From the UHGV virus genome UHGV-0169021: a stretch of 17,190 bases of DNA; one strand, given 5' to 3'. Numbering within the stretch: position 1 is the stretch's first letter; every line of letters begins with the position of its first letter. The notes below the pieces were generated by a model. That model searched no databases and was not told the origin of the DNA. It saw only the letters and a list, made by a program, of their open reading frames with translations. Below, in pieces: positions 1,305 through 7,011 of the stretch. A program made the translations under genes and the position numbers. The DNA comes from a virus.

Positions 1305-1895
1305 TCACTCTCCTTTGATGCGAATGCCTGCGGCGCGTGGCACATTAACTTCCACGATGCGCACTGTTGGTTTGTACATCTCAATCGCTGTCAGCCAGTC
1401 AGCTCCTGTCATGCGCTTTTCCGCATCGCCATTAGTCCACTGAACCGGTACACCAATAGCCTTCATAGCGATTTCTATTTCCCCGGCAATGGCGCTTTTT
1501 CCGCAACCAGTAAAACCAGATACAACGACCAGAACTTCACCTTTGGCTGGTTTTATTTCCCGCGCTTCCAGTTCAGCAATGCGCTTACTCCCATCCGAGA
1601 TAACACCTTCGTAATATTCACGCTGTTCGTTGAGTTTTGATTTTGCTTCCTCAAGCTCAACACGCAGCTTCCCTACCGTTAGTGCAATATCCTCGTTCTC
1701 CTGGTCGCGGCGTTTGATGTATTGCTGGTTTCTTTCCAGTTCATCCAACAATGCCAGCGCGATATCTGGCGAAAAGTGCTTCATAAAATCGTTAAGCGCA
1801 TTAATTCGCTGATCGAAAGGCATTACAGGTGCTTCACCAGCAATTTTTGTTTTTTCAGCGATTTCACGAAGCTTTTGATAATCAATCTTGCTCAC
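1305..1895 (-). CDS. ead/Ea22-like protein with a C-terminal Walker-A-like motif
   Basis: GTG start at 1895..1893 preceded by AAGGAGG (7-nt spacing) and overlapping the upstream TGA (GTGA). N-terminus [15 protein letters not shown] is typical of Ea22-like proteins as I recall; central coiled coil; GFTGCGKSA P-loop-like motif near the C-terminus. Confidence 0.6.
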   Translation of the reverse strand: MSKIDYQKLREIAEKTKIAGEAPVMPFDQRINALNDFMKHFSPDIALALLDELERNQQYIKRRDQENEDIALTVGKLRVELEEAKSKLNEQREYYEGVISDGSKRIAELEAREIKPAKGEVLVVVSGFTGCGKSAIAGEIEIAMKAIGVPVQWTNGDAEKRMTGADWLTAIEMYKPTVRIVEVNVPRAAGIRIKGE

Positions 1896-2431
1896 TGGTT
1901 GCCTCCTTTGCGAAGCTGTTCAGCAATACTTACGCATATCTCTGCGCCTCTAATCAGCCCCGGAACGTTCTTGTTTGGCCCAACTTCACCATCAACAAAA
2001 TCAATCATCGCGTTACGAGCCATATCCACCCCCTGCGCACGTACTTCAGCCAGGAGAGCGTCGGTAGCTGGGGTTTCAACACAGATGCTGTCGCGCAAGA
2101 TGAAAAATGCATTGAGCATCCCAGTCTCCGGCACTTCATCCTGATACTTCTCATACGCATCAAGAGCCTTCATCATCTCAGGTCCGAATGGTTGAGGGTG
2201 CGCAGATTTCAGTCTCGCATTCTCCGCCGCCAGCGCCGCGCACTTTGCTTCAAGGTTATCAATCGTGATTCCAGCAGAACGACACTCCCGCAACGCCGTT
2301 TCTAGTTTTGATTCAAGTTCACCGAACTTACGGACAAGATATTCAGCGTTTGTTTCGTTAACCTTTAAATCTCGTGGGATGCATTCACCTTTCAGAAAAC
2401 CATCCATCTCAATTAGTGTCATTTGTTTCAT
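1892..2431 (-). CDS. Coiled-coil early-region protein (Ea22-like region)
   Basis: The track start at 2449 is GTG; ATG at 2431..2429 overlaps the upstream stop (ATGA). Predicted coiled-coil-rich product; start choice is uncertain (a further ATG lies at 2422). Confidence 0.5.
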
Positions 2432-2592
2432 TTCTTCCCACTCCGCCACATCGCATTCAGATATTTGTTTTGATTCACTGATGGAAAAGAATTTCTCTTA
2501 AGCAATTCCTCTCTCGATGGCATTGGCTTTACGCGTTGGCGAATAATCATTTCTGCCGGAAGAATGCCGGGATTGTATGCAAGTCCTCTCAT
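2428..2592 (-). CDS. Small hypothetical protein (54 aa)
   Basis: The track ORF 2428..2742 overlaps the upstream gene; an internal ATG at 2592..2590 is preceded by GAGGA and lies just after the upstream stop at 2603. Confidence 0.3.
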
Positions 2593-2602
2593 GGTAAATT
2601 CC

Positions 2603-2896
2603 TCAGTCATTACTGATAGCGCCATAGCGTGAGCGGTAATTACGCAGGCGCGGGTCAATTTCAGGGAAGTGGGTATATGTGGCTTTGCGGAATGGTCGGA
2701 TTGATGTCTGGTAAATTCGCTCGCGTTCTTCTTTCTCTGCAAGCCATATACAGTGGCGAAATTCCTTTTCCTCTTTCGTTTCCTGCGGTAGCGACATTAT
2801 CCGGTCGTAGTTTTTCCTGAATTTATCCAGCACCTCCGATACGGAATTGCCGGAACAGCGGCGCGCGTCATCCGCACCATACAGAGGCGCTGGCAT
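2603..2896 (-). CDS. Hypothetical early-region protein (97 aa)
   Basis: ATG at 2896..2894 with AAGGA upstream; basic and acidic mixed product, no family recognised. Confidence 0.5.
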
Positions 2897-2919
2897 AATG
2901 GAATCCTTATTTTGCTAAT

Positions 2920-3303
2920 TTAGAAGGGAATTGAATCGTCGTATTCAGGATGATTTTGATGATTGCTACTTTGTTGCTGTTGGCTGTTTCCTGAAGTTGC
3001 AAATCCAATCTTTGCATTCAGTAATTCAAGAGTGATTGATTGGCCATTTTGCCCCTGATAAACATCAACCCTGATGTTTTCTCCGGTAATTTCCACAATG
3101 CCACCTTCAACAAGAACACTACGGTAGTAATCCGCTTGCGCTCCCGGCTTGGCAAATACAACGGCGCTGTAGTTTGTCCATTCTTTCTTTTTTGTCTGGC
3201 GATCGTAATACTGAACGCCAGCACGGATGTTGAATCCGATATTTTCCCCGGCCTGAAACTCTCTTGCGGGTTTGTTTAGTCTTACAGTAATCGAATGTGC
3301 CAT
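2920..3303 (-). CDS. ssb: Phage single-stranded DNA-binding protein (short Ea10-like SSB)
   Basis: 127 aa with an OB-fold-like N-terminal part, a Gln/Ser-rich linker and the acidic SSB tail ...EYDDSIPF; ATG at 3303..3301 overlaps the erf stop (TAATG). Confidence 0.8.
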   Translation of the reverse strand: MAHSITVRLNKPAREFQAGENIGFNIRAGVQYYDRQTKKKEWTNYSAVVFAKPGAQADYYRSVLVEGGIVEITGENIRVDVYQGQNGQSITLELLNAKIGFATSGNSQQQQSSNHQNHPEYDDSIPF

Positions 3304-3908
3304 TAAGCAGCCGCTCCTTCTAATTCGTCTCGTCTGATGTTGTAAACGTCCTGCGCTTTGTGCTGCTCAGGTGTGCCTTCGAGCATCTTCCACGCTTTGG
3401 CGAACGCCTGTTTAAGCTCTTCCACGGTGTTTTTCTGCATTGCTGCGTCAGTGAATGCTTTTAGAACCTGTTCAGGTGTAGGTGATGGTTTTGATTGCTT
3501 TGCTGCTGCGTTCTGCTGATGTTTATGCTCGTCTGTATCTGCATCTTTCGCATCATCAATGCCGAATAAACCATTGAGGCAATACTTGCGTGCATAAGAG
3601 CTTGTAGCTCCCGTAACTTGTGCAGAATCCATCCCTTTCTTGCTTTCTTCCTCTCGTGCAAGAGCGGTTGCCGTATGACTGTTTTCGCCATCGGTAATAG
3701 TTGCCGTGGCTTTCACGTAATACCGATCACCAATCAACACAACTTCATCGCTGATTGATAAAAACAGACCATTCAGTAACGGCTTAACGCCTTCAAGAAT
3801 ATCTTCGCAGCTTCTGTATTTATATTTGCCGAATGAGTTGTACTGATTCTTTGGCGCGTTCAGATTCTCCTGAATAGCTGCCAGTCTTGCGTAAAATTCT
3901 TTGCTCAT
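3303..3908 (-). CDS. erf: Erf-family single-strand annealing recombinase
   Basis: Product MSKEFYARLAAIQENLNAPKNQYNSFGKYKYRSCEDILEG... closely matches my recollection of P22 Erf. The track start at 3938 is TTG; the first ATG is 3908..3906. Confidence 0.85.
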   Translation of the reverse strand: MSKEFYARLAAIQENLNAPKNQYNSFGKYKYRSCEDILEGVKPLLNGLFLSISDEVVLIGDRYYVKATATITDGENSHTATALAREEESKKGMDSAQVTGATSSYARKYCLNGLFGIDDAKDADTDEHKHQQNAAAKQSKPSPTPEQVLKAFTDAAMQKNTVEELKQAFAKAWKMLEGTPEQHKAQDVYNIRRDELEGAAA

Positions 3909-3918
3909 ATGATTGTTC

Positions 3919-4089
3919 TCAGAATGGACACGGCCCAAGGAAATAACGCTGATTTAATACTTCGACTCGGGACAAATTAAGGCATACCCGCATTCCTTCG
4001 CGGTCGCCATTATGGCGATACCAGAGAGCTTTCTGCGTGTACATGCGTCTCTGTAACTTGCTCTCCTTCACTGTGGTTGCAAGTGACAT
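3919..4089 (-). CDS. Small protein in the arf/kil position (56 aa)
   Basis: Not in the ORF track (under 60 aa). ATG at 4089..4087 preceded by AAGGAGA at 6-nt spacing; TGA at 3921..3919. Overlaps an alternative 52-aa frame (see findings). Confidence 0.3.
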   Translation of the reverse strand: MSLATTVKESKLQRRMYTQKALWYRHNGDREGMRVCLNLSRVEVLNQRYFLGPCPF

Positions 4090-4164
4090 GAAAATCTCCT
4101 TCGTTACCGATTAATTCTTTCATCTGACGAATGAATTCTTCGTCTGACCAGTTATCTGTAAAAC

Positions 4165-4317
4165 TCATTTCCTGCGATACCACGGAAGGTTGATAGCTGA
4201 TTTCATCGCTTTATTTGCTTCAAGCCACATTTTGGAATCACCAATAAATCTGGCTATTACTGCTTTGTTCTGTGCAGCACGAAGCATCTGGTGATTGATG
4301 GCTATTTCATTGCGCAT
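4165..4317 (-). CDS. Kil-position small protein (putative host-killing/division-inhibition peptide)
   Basis: 50 aa, MRNEIAINHQMLRAAQNKAVIARFIGDSKMWLEANK...; ATG at 4317..4315 preceded by GGAGG; located immediately downstream of cIII as kil is in lambda and P22. Call is positional plus size; sequence recall is weak. Confidence 0.4.
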   Translation of the reverse strand: MRNEIAINHQMLRAAQNKAVIARFIGDSKMWLEANKAMKSAINLPWYRRK

Positions 4318-4436
4318 AACGCCTCCAGTTGTTTCTTTGCTGCTCTGATTAATTGTTTAACTCGGCGTGATAATTCAGATTCGTGCGGGTAGAAAGCGGA
4401 CATGACGCCGCTACCCGCGAGCTGAAAGTGCATCAT
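4302..4436 (-). CDS. cIII: CIII-family protease (FtsH) inhibitor
   Basis: 44 aa, MMHFQLAGSGVMSAFYPHESELSRRVKQLIRAAKKQLEALCAMK; the central ES-L-R-L-KK-L helix pattern and the N-terminal QxAG resemble lambda CIII (QYAIAG...ESLLERITRKLRDGWKRL). AAGGAG RBS upstream. Confidence 0.65.
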   Translation of the reverse strand: MMHFQLAGSGVMSAFYPHESELSRRVKQLIRAAKKQLEALCAMK

Positions 4437-4519
4437 GGGTAACTCCTTATATTTGATTGCATAACGAAAACGCCTCGAGTGAAGCGTTATTGGTATGCGG
4501 TAAAGCCGCGCTCAGGCGG

Positions 4520-4768
4520 CTACTCTATTTCTTCTTCGAATGATTTTATTAGTCGGTCAATAACATCATCCGTTTCAATATCATTTCCGTCTGATTGCTT
4601 TAATACATCTATTGATTCTGCAGCGGTAAATTCCATCGCTGTGAGAAACTCGACAATTGCACACTCAACGACATATCGTTCTTCATCTGTACGACATGAG
4701 ATAAAAGAGCATTTAATTGCTGTTATTACTTTTTGTTTAAGTTCTGCAGGATAATCAGTTTTTATCAT
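4520..4768 (-). CDS. Acidic hypothetical protein (82 aa)
   Basis: ATG at 4768..4766 with GGAG RBS; about 20 acidic versus 9 basic residues; placed directly after an intrinsic terminator. Confidence 0.5.
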   Translation of the reverse strand: MIKTDYPAELKQKVITAIKCSFISCRTDEERYVVECAIVEFLTAMEFTAAESIDVLKQSDGNDIETDDVIDRLIKSFEEEIE

Positions 4769-4781
4769 CGTTTACTCCGTT

Positions 4782-4809
4782 AAAAAAACTGCCCTCACAT
4801 TGGAGGGCA
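4782..4809 (-). terminator. Intrinsic terminator on the minus strand, just upstream of the 82-aa gene
   Basis: Minus-strand RNA: 7-bp stem UGCCCUC / GAGGGCA with a 6-nt loop, followed by GUUUUUUUA. Confidence 0.5.
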
Positions 4810-4870
4810 AAGAAGATTTCCAATAATCAGAACAAGTCGGCTCCTGTTTAGTTACGAGCGACATTGCTCC

Positions 4871-4898
4871 GTGTATTCACTCGTTGGAATGAATACAC
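4871..4898. repeat. Perfect 9-bp inverted repeat GTGTATTCA-N10-TGAATACAC
   Basis: Read directly from the sequence; lies in the intergenic gap between the 107-aa acidic gene and the terminator. Confidence 0.6.
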
Positions 4899-4942
4899 AG
4901 TGCAATGTTTATTCTGTTGTTTATGCCAAAAATAAAGGCCGA

Positions 4943-5266
4943 CTATTCGTCCTTATCTACATTCCTGAACCAAACGCAGATCGGACCGTCTTCTGTATCG
5001 TGAATCGAACCGACAAACCATCCTTCTCCATCTGGCATGCTTGGCTCCCATCCACTGATGTTTTGATTCCCATCTTCAAAATACGCGTCAATTACCGTTT
5101 GATTGTTGTCGTTTTCCATTTCAACAATTGATGATTCAATGCCATGCTGCTTGCAGAAAGATCTGAACTCATCAGCTGAAATTACCTCTCTATCCCCAAA
5201 CAGGTTGGCGTATTCTGGGTGCGTCCAGTAGCCATCCTCGCTTCGCTCTACTACTAATGCTTCCAT
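4943..5266 (-). CDS. Highly acidic hypothetical protein (107 aa)
   Basis: ATG at 5266..5264 with GAGGTG RBS at 5-nt spacing; about 25 Asp/Glu versus about 5 Lys/Arg; no family recognised. Confidence 0.6.
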   Translation of the reverse strand: MEALVVERSEDGYWTHPEYANLFGDREVISADEFRSFCKQHGIESSIVEMENDNNQTVIDAYFEDGNQNISGWEPSMPDGEGWFVGSIHDTEDGPICVWFRNVDKDE

Positions 5267-5375
5267 ATATCACCTCAAATAAGTGGTTTGCTGCCTAATT
5301 TCATTTTCTGTCGACCAACACAAGTCACACCCATTTCACTGCGTGGCTTGCGGTAGTAAATTCGGTTAGTTCAGA

Positions 5376-5402
5376 CAATAAAAAACCCACCGAAGTGGGC
5401 TA
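5376..5402 (-). terminator. Intrinsic terminator directly after the Nun-like gene
   Basis: Minus-strand RNA: GCCCAC-UUCG-GUGGGU followed by UUUUUUAUU; the stem begins within the TAG stop codon. Confidence 0.6.
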
Positions 5403-5732
5403 TGACCATTTTTTATTTGGATTTCGTTGGTGAGCATGATTAACAACTCTGTGCATTACATCCTCATATTTTTCATCTTCAATTTTTTCGACATCGCGAG
5501 GAAATGGTGTTGCTAATGCTTTGTCAACTTTATCCATTGGGTCTTCATTAATCTTATATTCAGGACCGTCATCTATAGCATTAAATCCAGGTGTTACACC
5601 GTTTTTTAATGCATATGCTATCCTCTTTTCCCATCTCGCTATTCTCCTCCTGTCTCGAGATGTAAGACCTCTATCAGATACTTTTCTGTTTTGTCCGCGG
5701 TCAGGATTAACATAAATAGTCTTTTTCACCAT
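5400..5732 (-). CDS. nun: Nun-like transcription-termination / phage-exclusion factor (HK022 Nun family)
   Basis: Arginine-rich motif RGLTSRDRRRIARWEKRIAYALK at residues 22-44 counted from MVKK..., three histidines (HRVVNHAH) and a penultimate Trp (..KKWS), matching the architecture I recall for HK022 Nun. The track start is TTG; ATGs at 5738 and 5732 lie 2 and 8 nt after the N stop. Confidence 0.7.
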   Translation of the reverse strand: MVKKTIYVNPDRGQNRKVSDRGLTSRDRRRIARWEKRIAYALKNGVTPGFNAIDDGPEYKINEDPMDKVDKALATPFPRDVEKIEDEKYEDVMHRVVNHAHQRNPNKKWS

Positions 5733-5740
5733 AAGCATAC

Positions 5741-6046
5741 TCAATAAGCACCGTACGGTAGTTTACTGTACAATTTTATTTTTTGGACTGCATGTATTTT
5801 GTTTCCTAATGGGTTTGAATCCTTGTAATAAATACTTCTATTTTTTCGAACGACTTCTTCTTTCTTCTTGCAGCAAAGGCTTCCTAGTGAAGCTGCTTTG
5901 TCTGCTCTGACGCAACCAGAGAGCTTTAGCGCAATTTTTCGCGCCAGTGCTTCATTACTGCGTCGCTCGGCAATAAGTTCTGCTCTGCGAGCTTTGTAGC
6001 GGCTTTTTGCCGTACCTTTGGATTCTTTCCAGACAATGGTTACCAT
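5741..6046 (-). CDS. N: Antitermination protein N, phi21-type arginine-rich motif
   Basis: Contains GTAKSRYKARRAELIAERR, matching my recollection of the phage 21 N ARM peptide; ATG at 6046..6044 preceded by AAGGAG; first gene downstream of PL and nutL. Confidence 0.8.
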   Translation of the reverse strand: MVTIVWKESKGTAKSRYKARRAELIAERRSNEALARKIALKLSGCVRADKAASLGSLCCKKKEEVVRKNRSIYYKDSNPLGNKIHAVQKIKLYSKLPYGAY

Positions 6047-6156
6047 GATGGTCTCCTTTAAGTGGCTTTGGCGCATGACGCGTCGAGGTGCTTATCTTCT
6101 CGATCGCTGTCTTGCAGCTGCAATTCGCGCCATCCCCAAAACCACTCAAGTTCTGG

Positions 6157-6196
6157 TCTCAACGGTTAGGTTGAGAGTCCGTCGATGTTAAAGAGC
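6157..6196 (-). promoter_or_regulatory. nutL: nutL (boxA plus boxB)
   Basis: Minus-strand boxA GCTCTTTAACA (6196..6186), then boxB hairpin UCUCAAC-CUAACC-GUUGAGA (6176..6157); same loop as the nutR boxB. Confidence 0.7.
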
Positions 6197-6242
6197 CTGC
6201 CAATCTGTTCCGTTTGGCTTCCAGCGTCCTGCTGATGGCTTA

Positions 6243-6296
6243 AATTTAAGACTTCTTAATTTATTGGTCAAGTGCATTTTTGAAGAAAACTTAATT
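6243..6296 (-). promoter_or_regulatory. PL promoter with OL operator(s)
   Basis: Minus strand TTGACC (6271..6266), 17-nt spacer, TAAATT (6248..6243); the 18-bp operator ATTTAAGACTTCTTAATT (6244..6261) shares half-sites with the OR sites; a second weaker site lies near 6279..6296. Confidence 0.55.
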
Positions 6297-6340
6297 TTAT
6301 GGGCGTGAATTTAGTTTGTCTTTGATTTTTAACGGGAAAT

Positions 6341-6360
6341 AAAAAAGGGGCGAAAGCCCC
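6341..6360 (-). terminator. Intrinsic terminator after the repressor gene
   Basis: Minus-strand RNA: GGGGC-UUUC-GCCCC followed by UUUUUUAUUU, immediately after the c2 TAA stop at 6363..6361. Confidence 0.6.
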
Positions 6361-7011
6361 TTAAGGAAGGTTTGCTAGCTTGGCATCAACGACAACGCCA
6401 ATGATTTTACAGTTCCCATTGATTTCAATCATTGGGTATTGTGGATTGAGTGGTTTCAGGAATTTTCTACCGGCATCAATAACTAACTTTTTGAATGTCG
6501 CCTCGTTTTCTCCTTCAAGTTTGGCGACTACCAGCTTTCCATTACGTGGTTCGACTTCTGGGTCGACGAGAATAATCATCCCCTCAGGAATACTCAGTCC
6601 TGCCGGGGCAGTCATTGAATCGCCTTTAACGTCGAGCCAAAAAGAGTCTTCAGAACAATCTACCGTTGTGTCGTACCAGTTATCTATTGCACGCCTATGA
6701 TATGGCTCTACAGCTTCCATCCAACATCCTGCGCTTACCCAACTAATTAGAGGATACGAACCTCTTGGATCATGCCTGCTGTGATAGGCAATGTTTGAAA
6801 GACTATCCTCTCCTTTCAACAGGTAATCAGGGGAGCACTGCAAAGCCTTGGCTAAGGCCAATAGGTTTTCGCCATTGGGCTCAGTTTCAGATCGCTCCCA
6901 TTGGGAAATAGCAACATTAGACACGCCAACCATCTTGCCAAGGGCAGCCTGCCTAATCTTGAGTTCTTTTCTGCGAGCGCGAATACGCTCACCCATCAGT
7001 TGTGTATTCAT
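6361..7011 (-). CDS. c2: CI-type repressor (P22 c2-like), HTH plus LexA-like S24 autopeptidase domain
   Basis: 216 aa; N-terminal HTH (...QAALGKMVGVSNVAISQWERSE...), C-terminal GDSM active-site serine region; matches my recollection of P22 c2. ATG at 7011..7009 abuts OR3. Confidence 0.9.
   Translation of the reverse strand: MNTQLMGERIRARRKELKIRQAALGKMVGVSNVAISQWERSETEPNGENLLALAKALQCSPDYLLKGEDSLSNIAYHSRHDPRGSYPLISWVSAGCWMEAVEPYHRRAIDNWYDTTVDCSEDSFWLDVKGDSMTAPAGLSIPEGMIILVDPEVEPRNGKLVVAKLEGENEATFKKLVIDAGRKFLKPLNPQYPMIEINGNCKIIGVVVDAKLANLP

Follow-up and report, generated by a model that had tools for sequence, protein, structure and literature searches.

What do two small, strongly acidic proteins encoded between nun and cIII do for a lambdoid phage, and are they DNA mimics that counter restriction, as an earlier look at the letters of this DNA (the sequence-only reading) had suggested? 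The question is raised by a stretch of 17,190 nucleotides (nt) from the virus genome UHGV-0169021 (hereafter the window), the early region of a mosaic lambdoid phage, which carries on its minus strand the genes orf107 and orf82, for proteins of 107 and 82 amino acids (Table 1). Our best overall explanation, to which we give a probability of roughly 0.6, is that both are exchangeable accessory genes, with probable delayed-early expression and products of a proposed binder class.

Sequence conservation establishes orf107 and orf82 as genuine protein-coding genes and not chance frames. For orf107, a search returned 32 close relatives and, with a profile, 773 homologous protein clusters of about 100 to 112 amino acids, with conserved length and invariant motifs; for orf82, a word-indexed search found near-identical relatives only, and an exhaustive search with HMMER brought in 17 representative clusters, 72 to 100 amino acids long, at 31 to 50% identity. 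Both families are conserved in length at 30 to 45% identity across genera. Both proteins match PHROG profiles over their full length (orf107 with PHROG 1372 at 1.7e-43 and orf82 with PHROG 14587 at 2.2e-48), and phrog_14587 was matched by 13 of 13 diverse members of the orf82 family. The acidity noted in the sequence-only reading is real, with 25 Asp/Glu against 6 Lys/Arg in orf107 (isoelectric point [pI] 4.07, net charge about -19, or -0.18 per residue) and 20 against 9 in orf82 (pI 4.27, net charge about -11.5, or -0.13 per residue), and it is kept in every member examined (net -7 to -19 in the orf107 family and -7 to -17 in the orf82 family). The remainder of that description also held: each gene has a good ribosome binding site (RBS) of its own (GAGGTGA at 5276-5270 for orf107 and GGAG at 4778-4775 for orf82); each is preceded by an intrinsic terminator, seen as minus-strand terminator-like hairpins at 5401-5384, 117 nt ahead of orf107, and at 4810-4789, 21 nt ahead of orf82; and the pair lies between nun (phrog_5632) and cIII (PF08134). 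Nine terminator-like sites were found in 3800-6400, against 2.4 +/- 1.6 in shuffled sequences.

The claims that the two genes are separate cassettes and that they lie in the region corresponding to that of lambda ral were both confirmed by comparison with lambda. BLAST aligned three anchors: window 4460-4520 with lambda 33483-33544, stretching between the DNA upstream of cIII and the ea10 stop; window 4783-4946 with lambda 33925-34087 at 96.3% identity, reaching the ral stop from a point shortly upstream of the ea10 start; and window 5260-5291 with lambda 34351-34381, just upstream of orf28/ral. Therefore, orf107 replaces lambda orf28 and ral, and orf82 replaces ea10. The cassette breakpoints coincide with stop codons, conserved linker DNA lies on both sides, and the cassettes are independently exchangeable: orf82 occurs without orf107 in Kapi1, ECP1, HK446, and two Escherichia coli prophages, and orf107 without orf82 in mEp213 and E. 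coli AF14. In other genomes, the ral slot is filled by Ral, an Nmad5 protein, HK97 gp45, or other small open reading frames (ORFs), or is empty (HK022), and the ea10 slot is filled by DUF2528 (Ea10) or a 322-amino-acid coiled-coil protein, or is empty (HK97, HK022). This orf107 allele was found in 41 and orf82 in 58 of 5,426 complete E. coli genomes, among which no locus covers at least 80% of the combined orf107 and orf82 region; the pairing in the window is a rare recombinant. The phages that match the window most closely, mEp043, Sf101, and Kapi1, each cover only 45 to 49% of it. The conserved linkers, that is, the gene between orf107 and orf82 discussed below and the terminator and RBS region upstream of cIII, are likely the crossover points for cassette exchange. 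In addition, the stretch between the nun terminator and orf107 translates to the C-terminal end of an N/gene-24-type protein, closing with SEMGVTCVGRQKMKLGSKPLI and a stop codon; judged by this translation, the stranded 3' end is a recombination scar that also forms the left junction of the orf107 cassette, and it looks like the outcome of a nun insertion or replacement. The intact N-like gene of the window (5741-6076) has a C-terminus that differs from this stranded end.

The DNA that separates the two cassettes is likely a gene in its own right. In lambda, the interval between ral and ea10 encodes LPR1/PreS, an Hfq-dependent small RNA (sRNA) of ~88 nt that is processed to ~68 nt, has the terminator tL2a as its 3' end, is made in the lytic cycle, and up-regulates dnaN; Hfq binding and the regulation of dnaN and alaS by PreS are reported for lambda only (bioRxiv 10.1101/2024.10.31.621285). 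The homologue in the window holds the same position, downstream of the gene in the ral slot and upstream of the gene in the ea10 slot. Between 4870 and 4782, it differs from lambda in one base of the terminator loop and in changes at the 3' base of the terminator stem, and the segment folds far better than shuffled sequences (RNA fold z = -5.8). The terminator ahead of orf82 is thus the 3' end of this PreS homologue and probably also a homologous crossover point, and the 164-bp anchor that contains it (4783-4946) is present in 331 phage records. The conserved hairpin at 4898-4871 may be a processing site. A scan of 4200-6500 against Rfam returned no curated family; therefore, PreS is evidently not in Rfam 15. 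In mEp213, a second PreS-like segment (locus 3903-3993, 90% identical to window 4779-4869) lies between the two annotated N genes, which suggests a duplicated N-to-PreS module.

Both proteins have been encountered before. Silas et al. (2023) delimited accessory regions by computation and made a synthetic library of 200 accessory genes (bioRxiv 10.1101/2023.04.06.535777). Within that library, UDP0184 (AFM76385.1, mEp213_045, orf184) is 95% identical to orf107 over 107 amino acids, and UDP0194 (AFH20664.1 of HK446; orf194 by library numbering) has the amino acid sequence of orf82; that the UDP numbers are the orf numbers was checked with Ocr (1), Ral (87), Abc1 (116), and ArdA (169). In mEp213, orf184 sits in the same slot upstream of PreS/tL2a and is separated from orf107 by five substitutions (V28A, S35Y, Q67P, and the last two residues), although its upstream neighbour is a 74-amino-acid gene and that of orf107 is nun. 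The HK446 gene shares the slot of orf82 between PreS/tL2a and cIII. Expression of orf184 activates gop-beta-cII, a toxin-antitoxin-like system of a P4-like satellite in ECOR59, and leads to cell death, and this effect was reconstituted in a lab strain; orf184 is described as widely distributed among coliphages and as belonging to the same accessory region as ral, and the annotators' comment on it was "???" (nothing meaningful found) (bioRxiv 10.1101/2023.04.06.535777). Protection by gop-beta-cII extends to lambda and P1 (Rousset et al. 2022, PMC9122126). By near identity and shared slot, orf107 falls into the orf184 class, and we propose from this resemblance that the orf184 phenotype would carry over to the window allele.

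The candidacy of the two proteins as anti-defence factors, put forward in the sequence-only reading, therefore stands in part: both were picked by a published accessory screen, out of the accessory region to which ral belongs, and the homologue of orf107 triggers an abortive system, but neither was reported as a counter-defence gene. It is supported and legitimate to call them "counter-defence-associated" accessory genes. Because identical or near-identical proteins have already been catalogued, synthesised, and screened, one of them with a published phenotype, the finding made in the window is already known. The supplementary material of Silas et al. 2025 (Nat Commun) contains neither sequence, and a full-text literature search for peptide motifs of the proteins gave no match. 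A parallel exists in P22 Abc1 (orf116), likewise a small gene of the counter-defence region of the pL operon that triggers cell death encoded by a P4 satellite (bioRxiv 10.1101/2023.04.06.535777). However, Abc1 is a basic helix-turn-helix protein thought to act on P4 transcription, whereas orf107 is acidic and without a DNA-binding fold.

The likeness to Ocr, ArdA, and Gam on which the sequence-only reading had built was not borne out by remote homology searches, in which neither protein resembled these or any solved structure. Scans of both proteins and of family members with Pfam, NCBIfam, and PADLOC gave nothing significant, sequence and profile searches of the PDB (2026 copy) gave nothing below E = 0.1 for either protein, neither protein was similar to a solved DNA mimic in sequence, profile, or fold, and a BFVD search returned uncharacterised relatives only. 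The lambda occupants of the two slots are no closer. Of lambda Ral (PF11058, 66 amino acids) and Rac Lar, Ral shares with orf107 its slot and its nature as a small early pL-operon accessory protein but has no sequence or profile similarity to it (hhalign probability 0.1% for the orf107 family against Ral); in the literature, Ral counters restriction not as a DNA mimic but by stimulating modification by EcoKI. Lambda Ea10 (DUF2528, PF10800), with 122 amino acids against 82, shows no similarity to orf82 (hhalign probability 0.1%), and its function is also uncharacterised (bioRxiv 10.1101/2024.10.31.621285). orf107 and orf82 were unrelated to each other by hhalign, and BLASTP of orf82 against true Ral gave E = 16; in the family tests, true Ral scored 1.6e-48 and a genuine DUF2528 protein of the ea10 slot scored 1.8e-47.

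In orf107, the invariant or near-invariant positions, plasmid homologues included, are R8, G12, W14, H16, P17, W73, G82-W83-F84, S87, D90, T91, D93-G94, C97, W99, and R101, and the family carries the motifs R-x3-G-x-W-x-H-P and G-W-F-x-G-S-I-H-D-T-E-D-G-P. Conservation thus falls mostly on Trp, Phe, Gly, His, and Pro positions and on one beta-turn, with about eleven largely acidic columns beside them. The structure model of orf107, which is confident (predicted local distance difference test [pLDDT] 85), predicts a beta core of aromatic residues and a single invariant acidic turn; the deposited AlphaFold model of ORF184 (Supplementary File 7 of the Silas preprint) starts MEALVVERSEDGYW and has a pLDDT of 90-98 over its first 15 residues. 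A His/Cys metal site (H16, H89, C97) was considered and rejected, since phi1026b gp46 and Parlo gp49 have kept neither H89 nor C97. Distant members lose H89 and C97 but keep W-x-H-P and D-T-E-D-G-P, which argues for a binding module and not a metallo-enzyme. The resemblance of orf107 residues 12-19 (GYWTHPEY, window about 5210-5233) to Strep-tag II (WSHPQFEK) on tagged PDB constructs is a trivial coincidence. For orf82, the model predicts a four-helix protein with generic helical matches only, and its family shares an IVEF(L/F)xA helix and a G-M-D-x-E-T-D-D-x-I-D-E motif. A weak match of its C-terminal half to the N-terminal helices of Im7, the colicin E7 immunity protein (E = 0.23-0.9), was gone in the profile search and was rejected as compositional.

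The orf107 family is broadly distributed. It occurs in lambdoid, Rac-like, and Gifsy-like prophages, often amid recombination and exo-xis/ea22-type genes, in D6, a phage-plasmid, and PY54, a linear-plasmid prophage, and in phages of Burkholderia, Pseudomonas, Vibrio, Ralstonia, Xanthomonas, and others. It is also found in 2,442 of 72,556 plasmid records, 2,130 of which are predicted to be conjugative and 1,896 of which come from Klebsiella. On F-type plasmids, the homologue occupies either the traW-traU interval or that from traX/finO to repA, and not the leading region; on Klebsiella and Salmonella IncFII plasmids it stands at the tra-distal end, and on F-type plasmids of Enterobacter (locus 4983-5306) and Kosakonia (4947-5321) it is inserted in the tra operon, in the traW-traU interval, with three or four other unnamed ORFs. 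The order in pKpQIL is DUF2726, orf107 homologue, and phospholipase-D nuclease; in pKpQIL-9b8 (locus 1513-3123), the homologue overlaps the DUF2726 (nuclease-like) gene by 4 bp and a PIN-domain gene is nearby. These surroundings may be an uncharacterised nuclease-rich accessory module, an adjacency that is not conserved in other plasmids. The idea of orf107 as an immunity or antitoxin partner of the DUF2726 gene was rejected, because the two genes are no longer adjacent in Salmonella p24399 and do not adjoin in Enterobacter and Kosakonia plasmids or in phages. The orf107 homologues have no conserved neighbour, and the fused domains of longer family members (173-250 amino acids) had no Pfam match.

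In contrast, the orf82 family is phage-restricted, save for copies in prophages and phage-like plasmids. In Salmonella Saltrevirus and related Klebsiella siphophages, the homologue is the first gene behind a strong promoter (TTGACG-17-TATAGT), in Salmonella phage 64795_sal3 it comes first behind a 10/12 sigma-70 promoter, and in Klebsiella phage VLCpiS13f it is first after a divergent intergenic region; a ParB-like gene follows it, joined in the Klebsiella phage by a DNA methyltransferase gene. This promoter-proximal position in Saltrevirus-type siphophages fits an immediate-early role. In Edwardsiella phage Edno5, the homologue lies between the immunity region and cIII. The description "anti-restriction protein" attached to PHROG 14587 matches the GenBank label "antirestriction protein ral" of an ECP1 gene (ECP1 locus 2621-2869), and we found no experimental basis for it. 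Because orf82 is unlike Ral and adjoins a genuine Ral gene in E. coli CUVM3, the label appears, on these comparisons, to be a positional "ral" mislabel that was propagated, by way of PHROG-based annotation, to Salmonella and Klebsiella phages such as VLCpiS13f.

A crude consensus scan found no sigma-70-like site ahead of either gene on the coding strand of 4400-5400. Because of this, and because an intrinsic terminator precedes each gene, both are probably expressed only under N antitermination of pL transcription, hence early on infection or induction but not in a lysogen. The order of the operon is pL, nutL, N, nun, terminator, orf107, PreS/tL2a, orf82, terminator, cIII, and kil, and orf107 and orf82 are each an allelic cassette of its slot; under our preferred explanation, both proteins would be delayed-early products of the N-antiterminated operon. 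We tentatively suggest, at a little under even odds, that both are non-catalytic stoichiometric binders of a protein of the host or of a competing element, in the counter-defence or host-takeover class. The interface of orf107 would be its two conserved motifs, and the perturbation caused by orf107 would be what gop-beta-cII responds to, either directly or through a guarded host target.

Several points weigh against this explanation. Neither protein has a known target, the promoter scan was crude and some weak lysogenic expression may occur, and the orf82 model is only moderately confident (pLDDT 74, predicted template modelling score 0.51). The orf107 homologues of F-type plasmids lie within the tra operon or at its distal end, whereas anti-restriction genes of the ardA type normally lie in the plasmid leading region. 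Furthermore, orf184 and orf194 were not among the host-sensitising (counter-defence) genes of the published screen, although Ocr, Ral, and ArdA were, and orf194 was not among the genes giving any phenotype (bioRxiv 10.1101/2023.04.06.535777). These negatives are weak, since the screen took in no more than a subset of the ECOR hosts and phages. A bolder version, which we consider speculative and on balance unlikely, would make the orf107 family an unrecognised Proteobacteria-wide counter-defence or host-manipulation module, guarded by gop-beta-cII, that neutralises a conserved host factor acting on incoming or replicating mobile DNA, with orf82 as an independent immediate-early inhibitor of another target. 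Temperate phages and phage-plasmids share the family with about 2,400 plasmids, most of them conjugative, among which are carbapenemase plasmids of the pKpQIL type.

The alternative that survives best is that the two proteins are host-takeover or physiology factors unrelated to immunity, acting on replication, recombination, SOS, or cell division, with the gop-beta-cII response as a generic stress read-out. Their operon neighbours are modulators of host physiology (cIII, kil, and PreS acting on dnaN), and orf107 homologues lie amid recombination and exo-xis/ea22-type genes and in tra operons expressed in donor cells; the spread of orf107 over Proteobacteria also suggests a conserved core host target. 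Since gop-beta-cII protects against lambda and lambda is not among the orf107 tblastn matches listed, orf184 is not the sole trigger of the system. However, no phenotype ties either gene to such a pathway, and rare, patchy alleles in a hypervariable slot are a pattern typical of arms-race genes; we therefore hold this alternative to be improbable, though worth serious consideration.

Less probable still is the proposal of the sequence-only reading itself, in which one or both proteins would mimic DNA and block type I restriction enzymes or RecBCD through arrays of carboxylates that resemble a DNA backbone. With Ocr, ArdA, Gam, and T7 gp5.9, the two proteins have in common their small size, strong negative charge, and early expression from a mobile element, and the family-wide net charge of -0.12 to -0.15 per residue is comparable in density to that of known DNA mimics. 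The proposal also gains from the position of orf107 in the lambda ral slot with its expected early expression, from the orf82 homologue of VLCpiS13f as first early gene by the ParB-like and DNA methyltransferase genes, and from an orf107 homologue that follows recT in a Salmonella Rac-like prophage, presumably about where E. coli Rac carries lar/ralR. On the other hand, neither protein has a sequence or fold relationship to those mimics or to Arn, no anti-restriction phenotype is on record for orf107 or orf82, conservation in orf107 is mainly aromatic, Gly, His, and Pro, the Ocr, Ral, and ArdA controls sensitised hosts in the screen when orf184 and orf194 did not, plasmid homologues lie outside leading regions, and the "anti-restriction" label of PHROG 14587 appears to go back to an ECP1 "ral" gene that is unlike Ral. 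As a guess at the class of function the proposal is reasonable, but in this form it found no support, and we regard it as quite unlikely.

We give very little credence to the view that the genes are morons expressed in the lysogen for prophage defence or superinfection exclusion, in the manner of sieB or rexAB. The same slots elsewhere hold sieB-type exclusion genes and Nmad5, and terminators bracket each gene, as is often the case with morons. Yet a moron has a promoter of its own in addition to a terminator, and the crude scan found none on the coding strand; the proteins are small, soluble, and acidic, with no enzymatic, membrane, or sensor domains and no PADLOC match; orf82 homologues come first behind the promoter in phages that have no annotated lysogeny genes in the regions examined; and orf184 triggers a defence system and does not act as one. 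Finally, the view that at least one of the ORFs is a decaying pseudogene or a frame without function, set between conserved regulatory elements, gains something from the dispensability of the slot contents (HK022 and HK97 lack one or both) but is hardly credible given the length-conserved families with invariant motifs, the good RBSs, the confident orf107 model, and the specific biological effect of expressed orf184; for orf107, it is effectively refuted.

Table 1. Features of the early leftward region of the window (positions of the whole stretch)
Feature	Position	Strand	Remarks
orf107, acidic 107-amino-acid accessory protein (PHROG 1372)	4943..5266	-	Lambda orf28+ral slot
orf82, acidic 82-amino-acid four-helix (predicted) accessory protein (PHROG 14587)	4520..4768	-	Lambda ea10 slot
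Homologue of lambda sRNA LPR1/PreS, ~88 nt	4782..4870	-	Near-identical to lambda; 3' end is the tL2a hairpin 4810-4789 plus U-run
Conserved 9-bp hairpin, part of a longer stem	4871..4898	-	Directly 5' of the PreS homologue, reaching up to the inferred start of the sRNA
Stranded 3' end of an N/P22-gene-24-type gene (ends YYRKPRSEMGVTCVGRQKMKLGSKPLI, then stop)	5275..5358	-	From translation; matches N 3' ends in HK97 and mEp213
Intrinsic terminator following nun	5384..5401	-	7-bp stem, T-run
nun, HK022-type transcription termination factor	5400..5744	-	phrog_5632 4.8e-71 (residues 3-114)
N-like antiterminator gene, P22 gene 24 type	5741..6076	-	phrog_271 "anti-termination protein N-like" 1e-31; weak Pfam N_peptide match
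nutL-like site	6157..6197	-	boxA-like GGCTCTTTAA 6197-6188; 7-bp boxB-like hairpin TCTCAAC-CTAACC-GTTGAGA 6176-6157
pL-like promoter TTGACC-17-TAAATT	6243..6271	-	9/12 consensus match; between c2-type repressor and N-like genes
Intrinsic terminator between orf82 and cIII	4469..4488	-	Within lambda-shared linker
cIII	4302..4436	-	PF08134 2e-30
kil	4165-4317	-	Operon neighbour downstream of cIII

The gene at 6361-7011 (minus strand) is one that we take to be a P22-c2-like (LexA-family) repressor gene, from the P22 c2 sequence and the RefSeq annotation of the homologous gene. The pL-like promoter should drive the entire leftward operon, and the nutL-like site is assigned as a putative nut from its position upstream of the N-like gene. 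The nun region is 96.4% identical in nucleotides to that of HK022, and the true start of nun is probably the Met at 5738, giving 112 amino acids. The N-like antiterminator and the HK022-type Nun stand in tandem (5400-6076, minus strand), and an N and nun pair is also present in Kapi1 and several E. coli prophages; HK022 itself has Nun and is not known to have N. Between kil and erf there is a third small ORF that is very acidic (4010-4183, minus strand; 57 amino acids, -0.175 net charge per residue, pI 4.4). It matches phrog_2123, which is labelled "recombinase," and overlaps a basic ORF of 56 amino acids at 3919-4089 (phrog_1723), to which UDP0168 of the Silas library, a 56-amino-acid protein, is much alike as judged by eye.

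Taken for the biology of lambdoid phages, these results describe the lambda ral/ea10 region as two hypervariable slots separated by the conserved sRNA gene PreS/tL2a, and therefore offer a simple rule for collecting accessory genes from thousands of lambdoid prophages. What remains of interest is the breadth of the orf107 family over phages and conjugative plasmids and the manner in which gop-beta-cII gets tripped. The family is large, unnamed, and absent from Pfam, and it occurs in phages of many Proteobacteria and in about 3% of sequenced plasmids. The target of orf107 would explain how gop-beta-cII senses infection, and it might reveal a widely used mechanism of counter-defence or host takeover.

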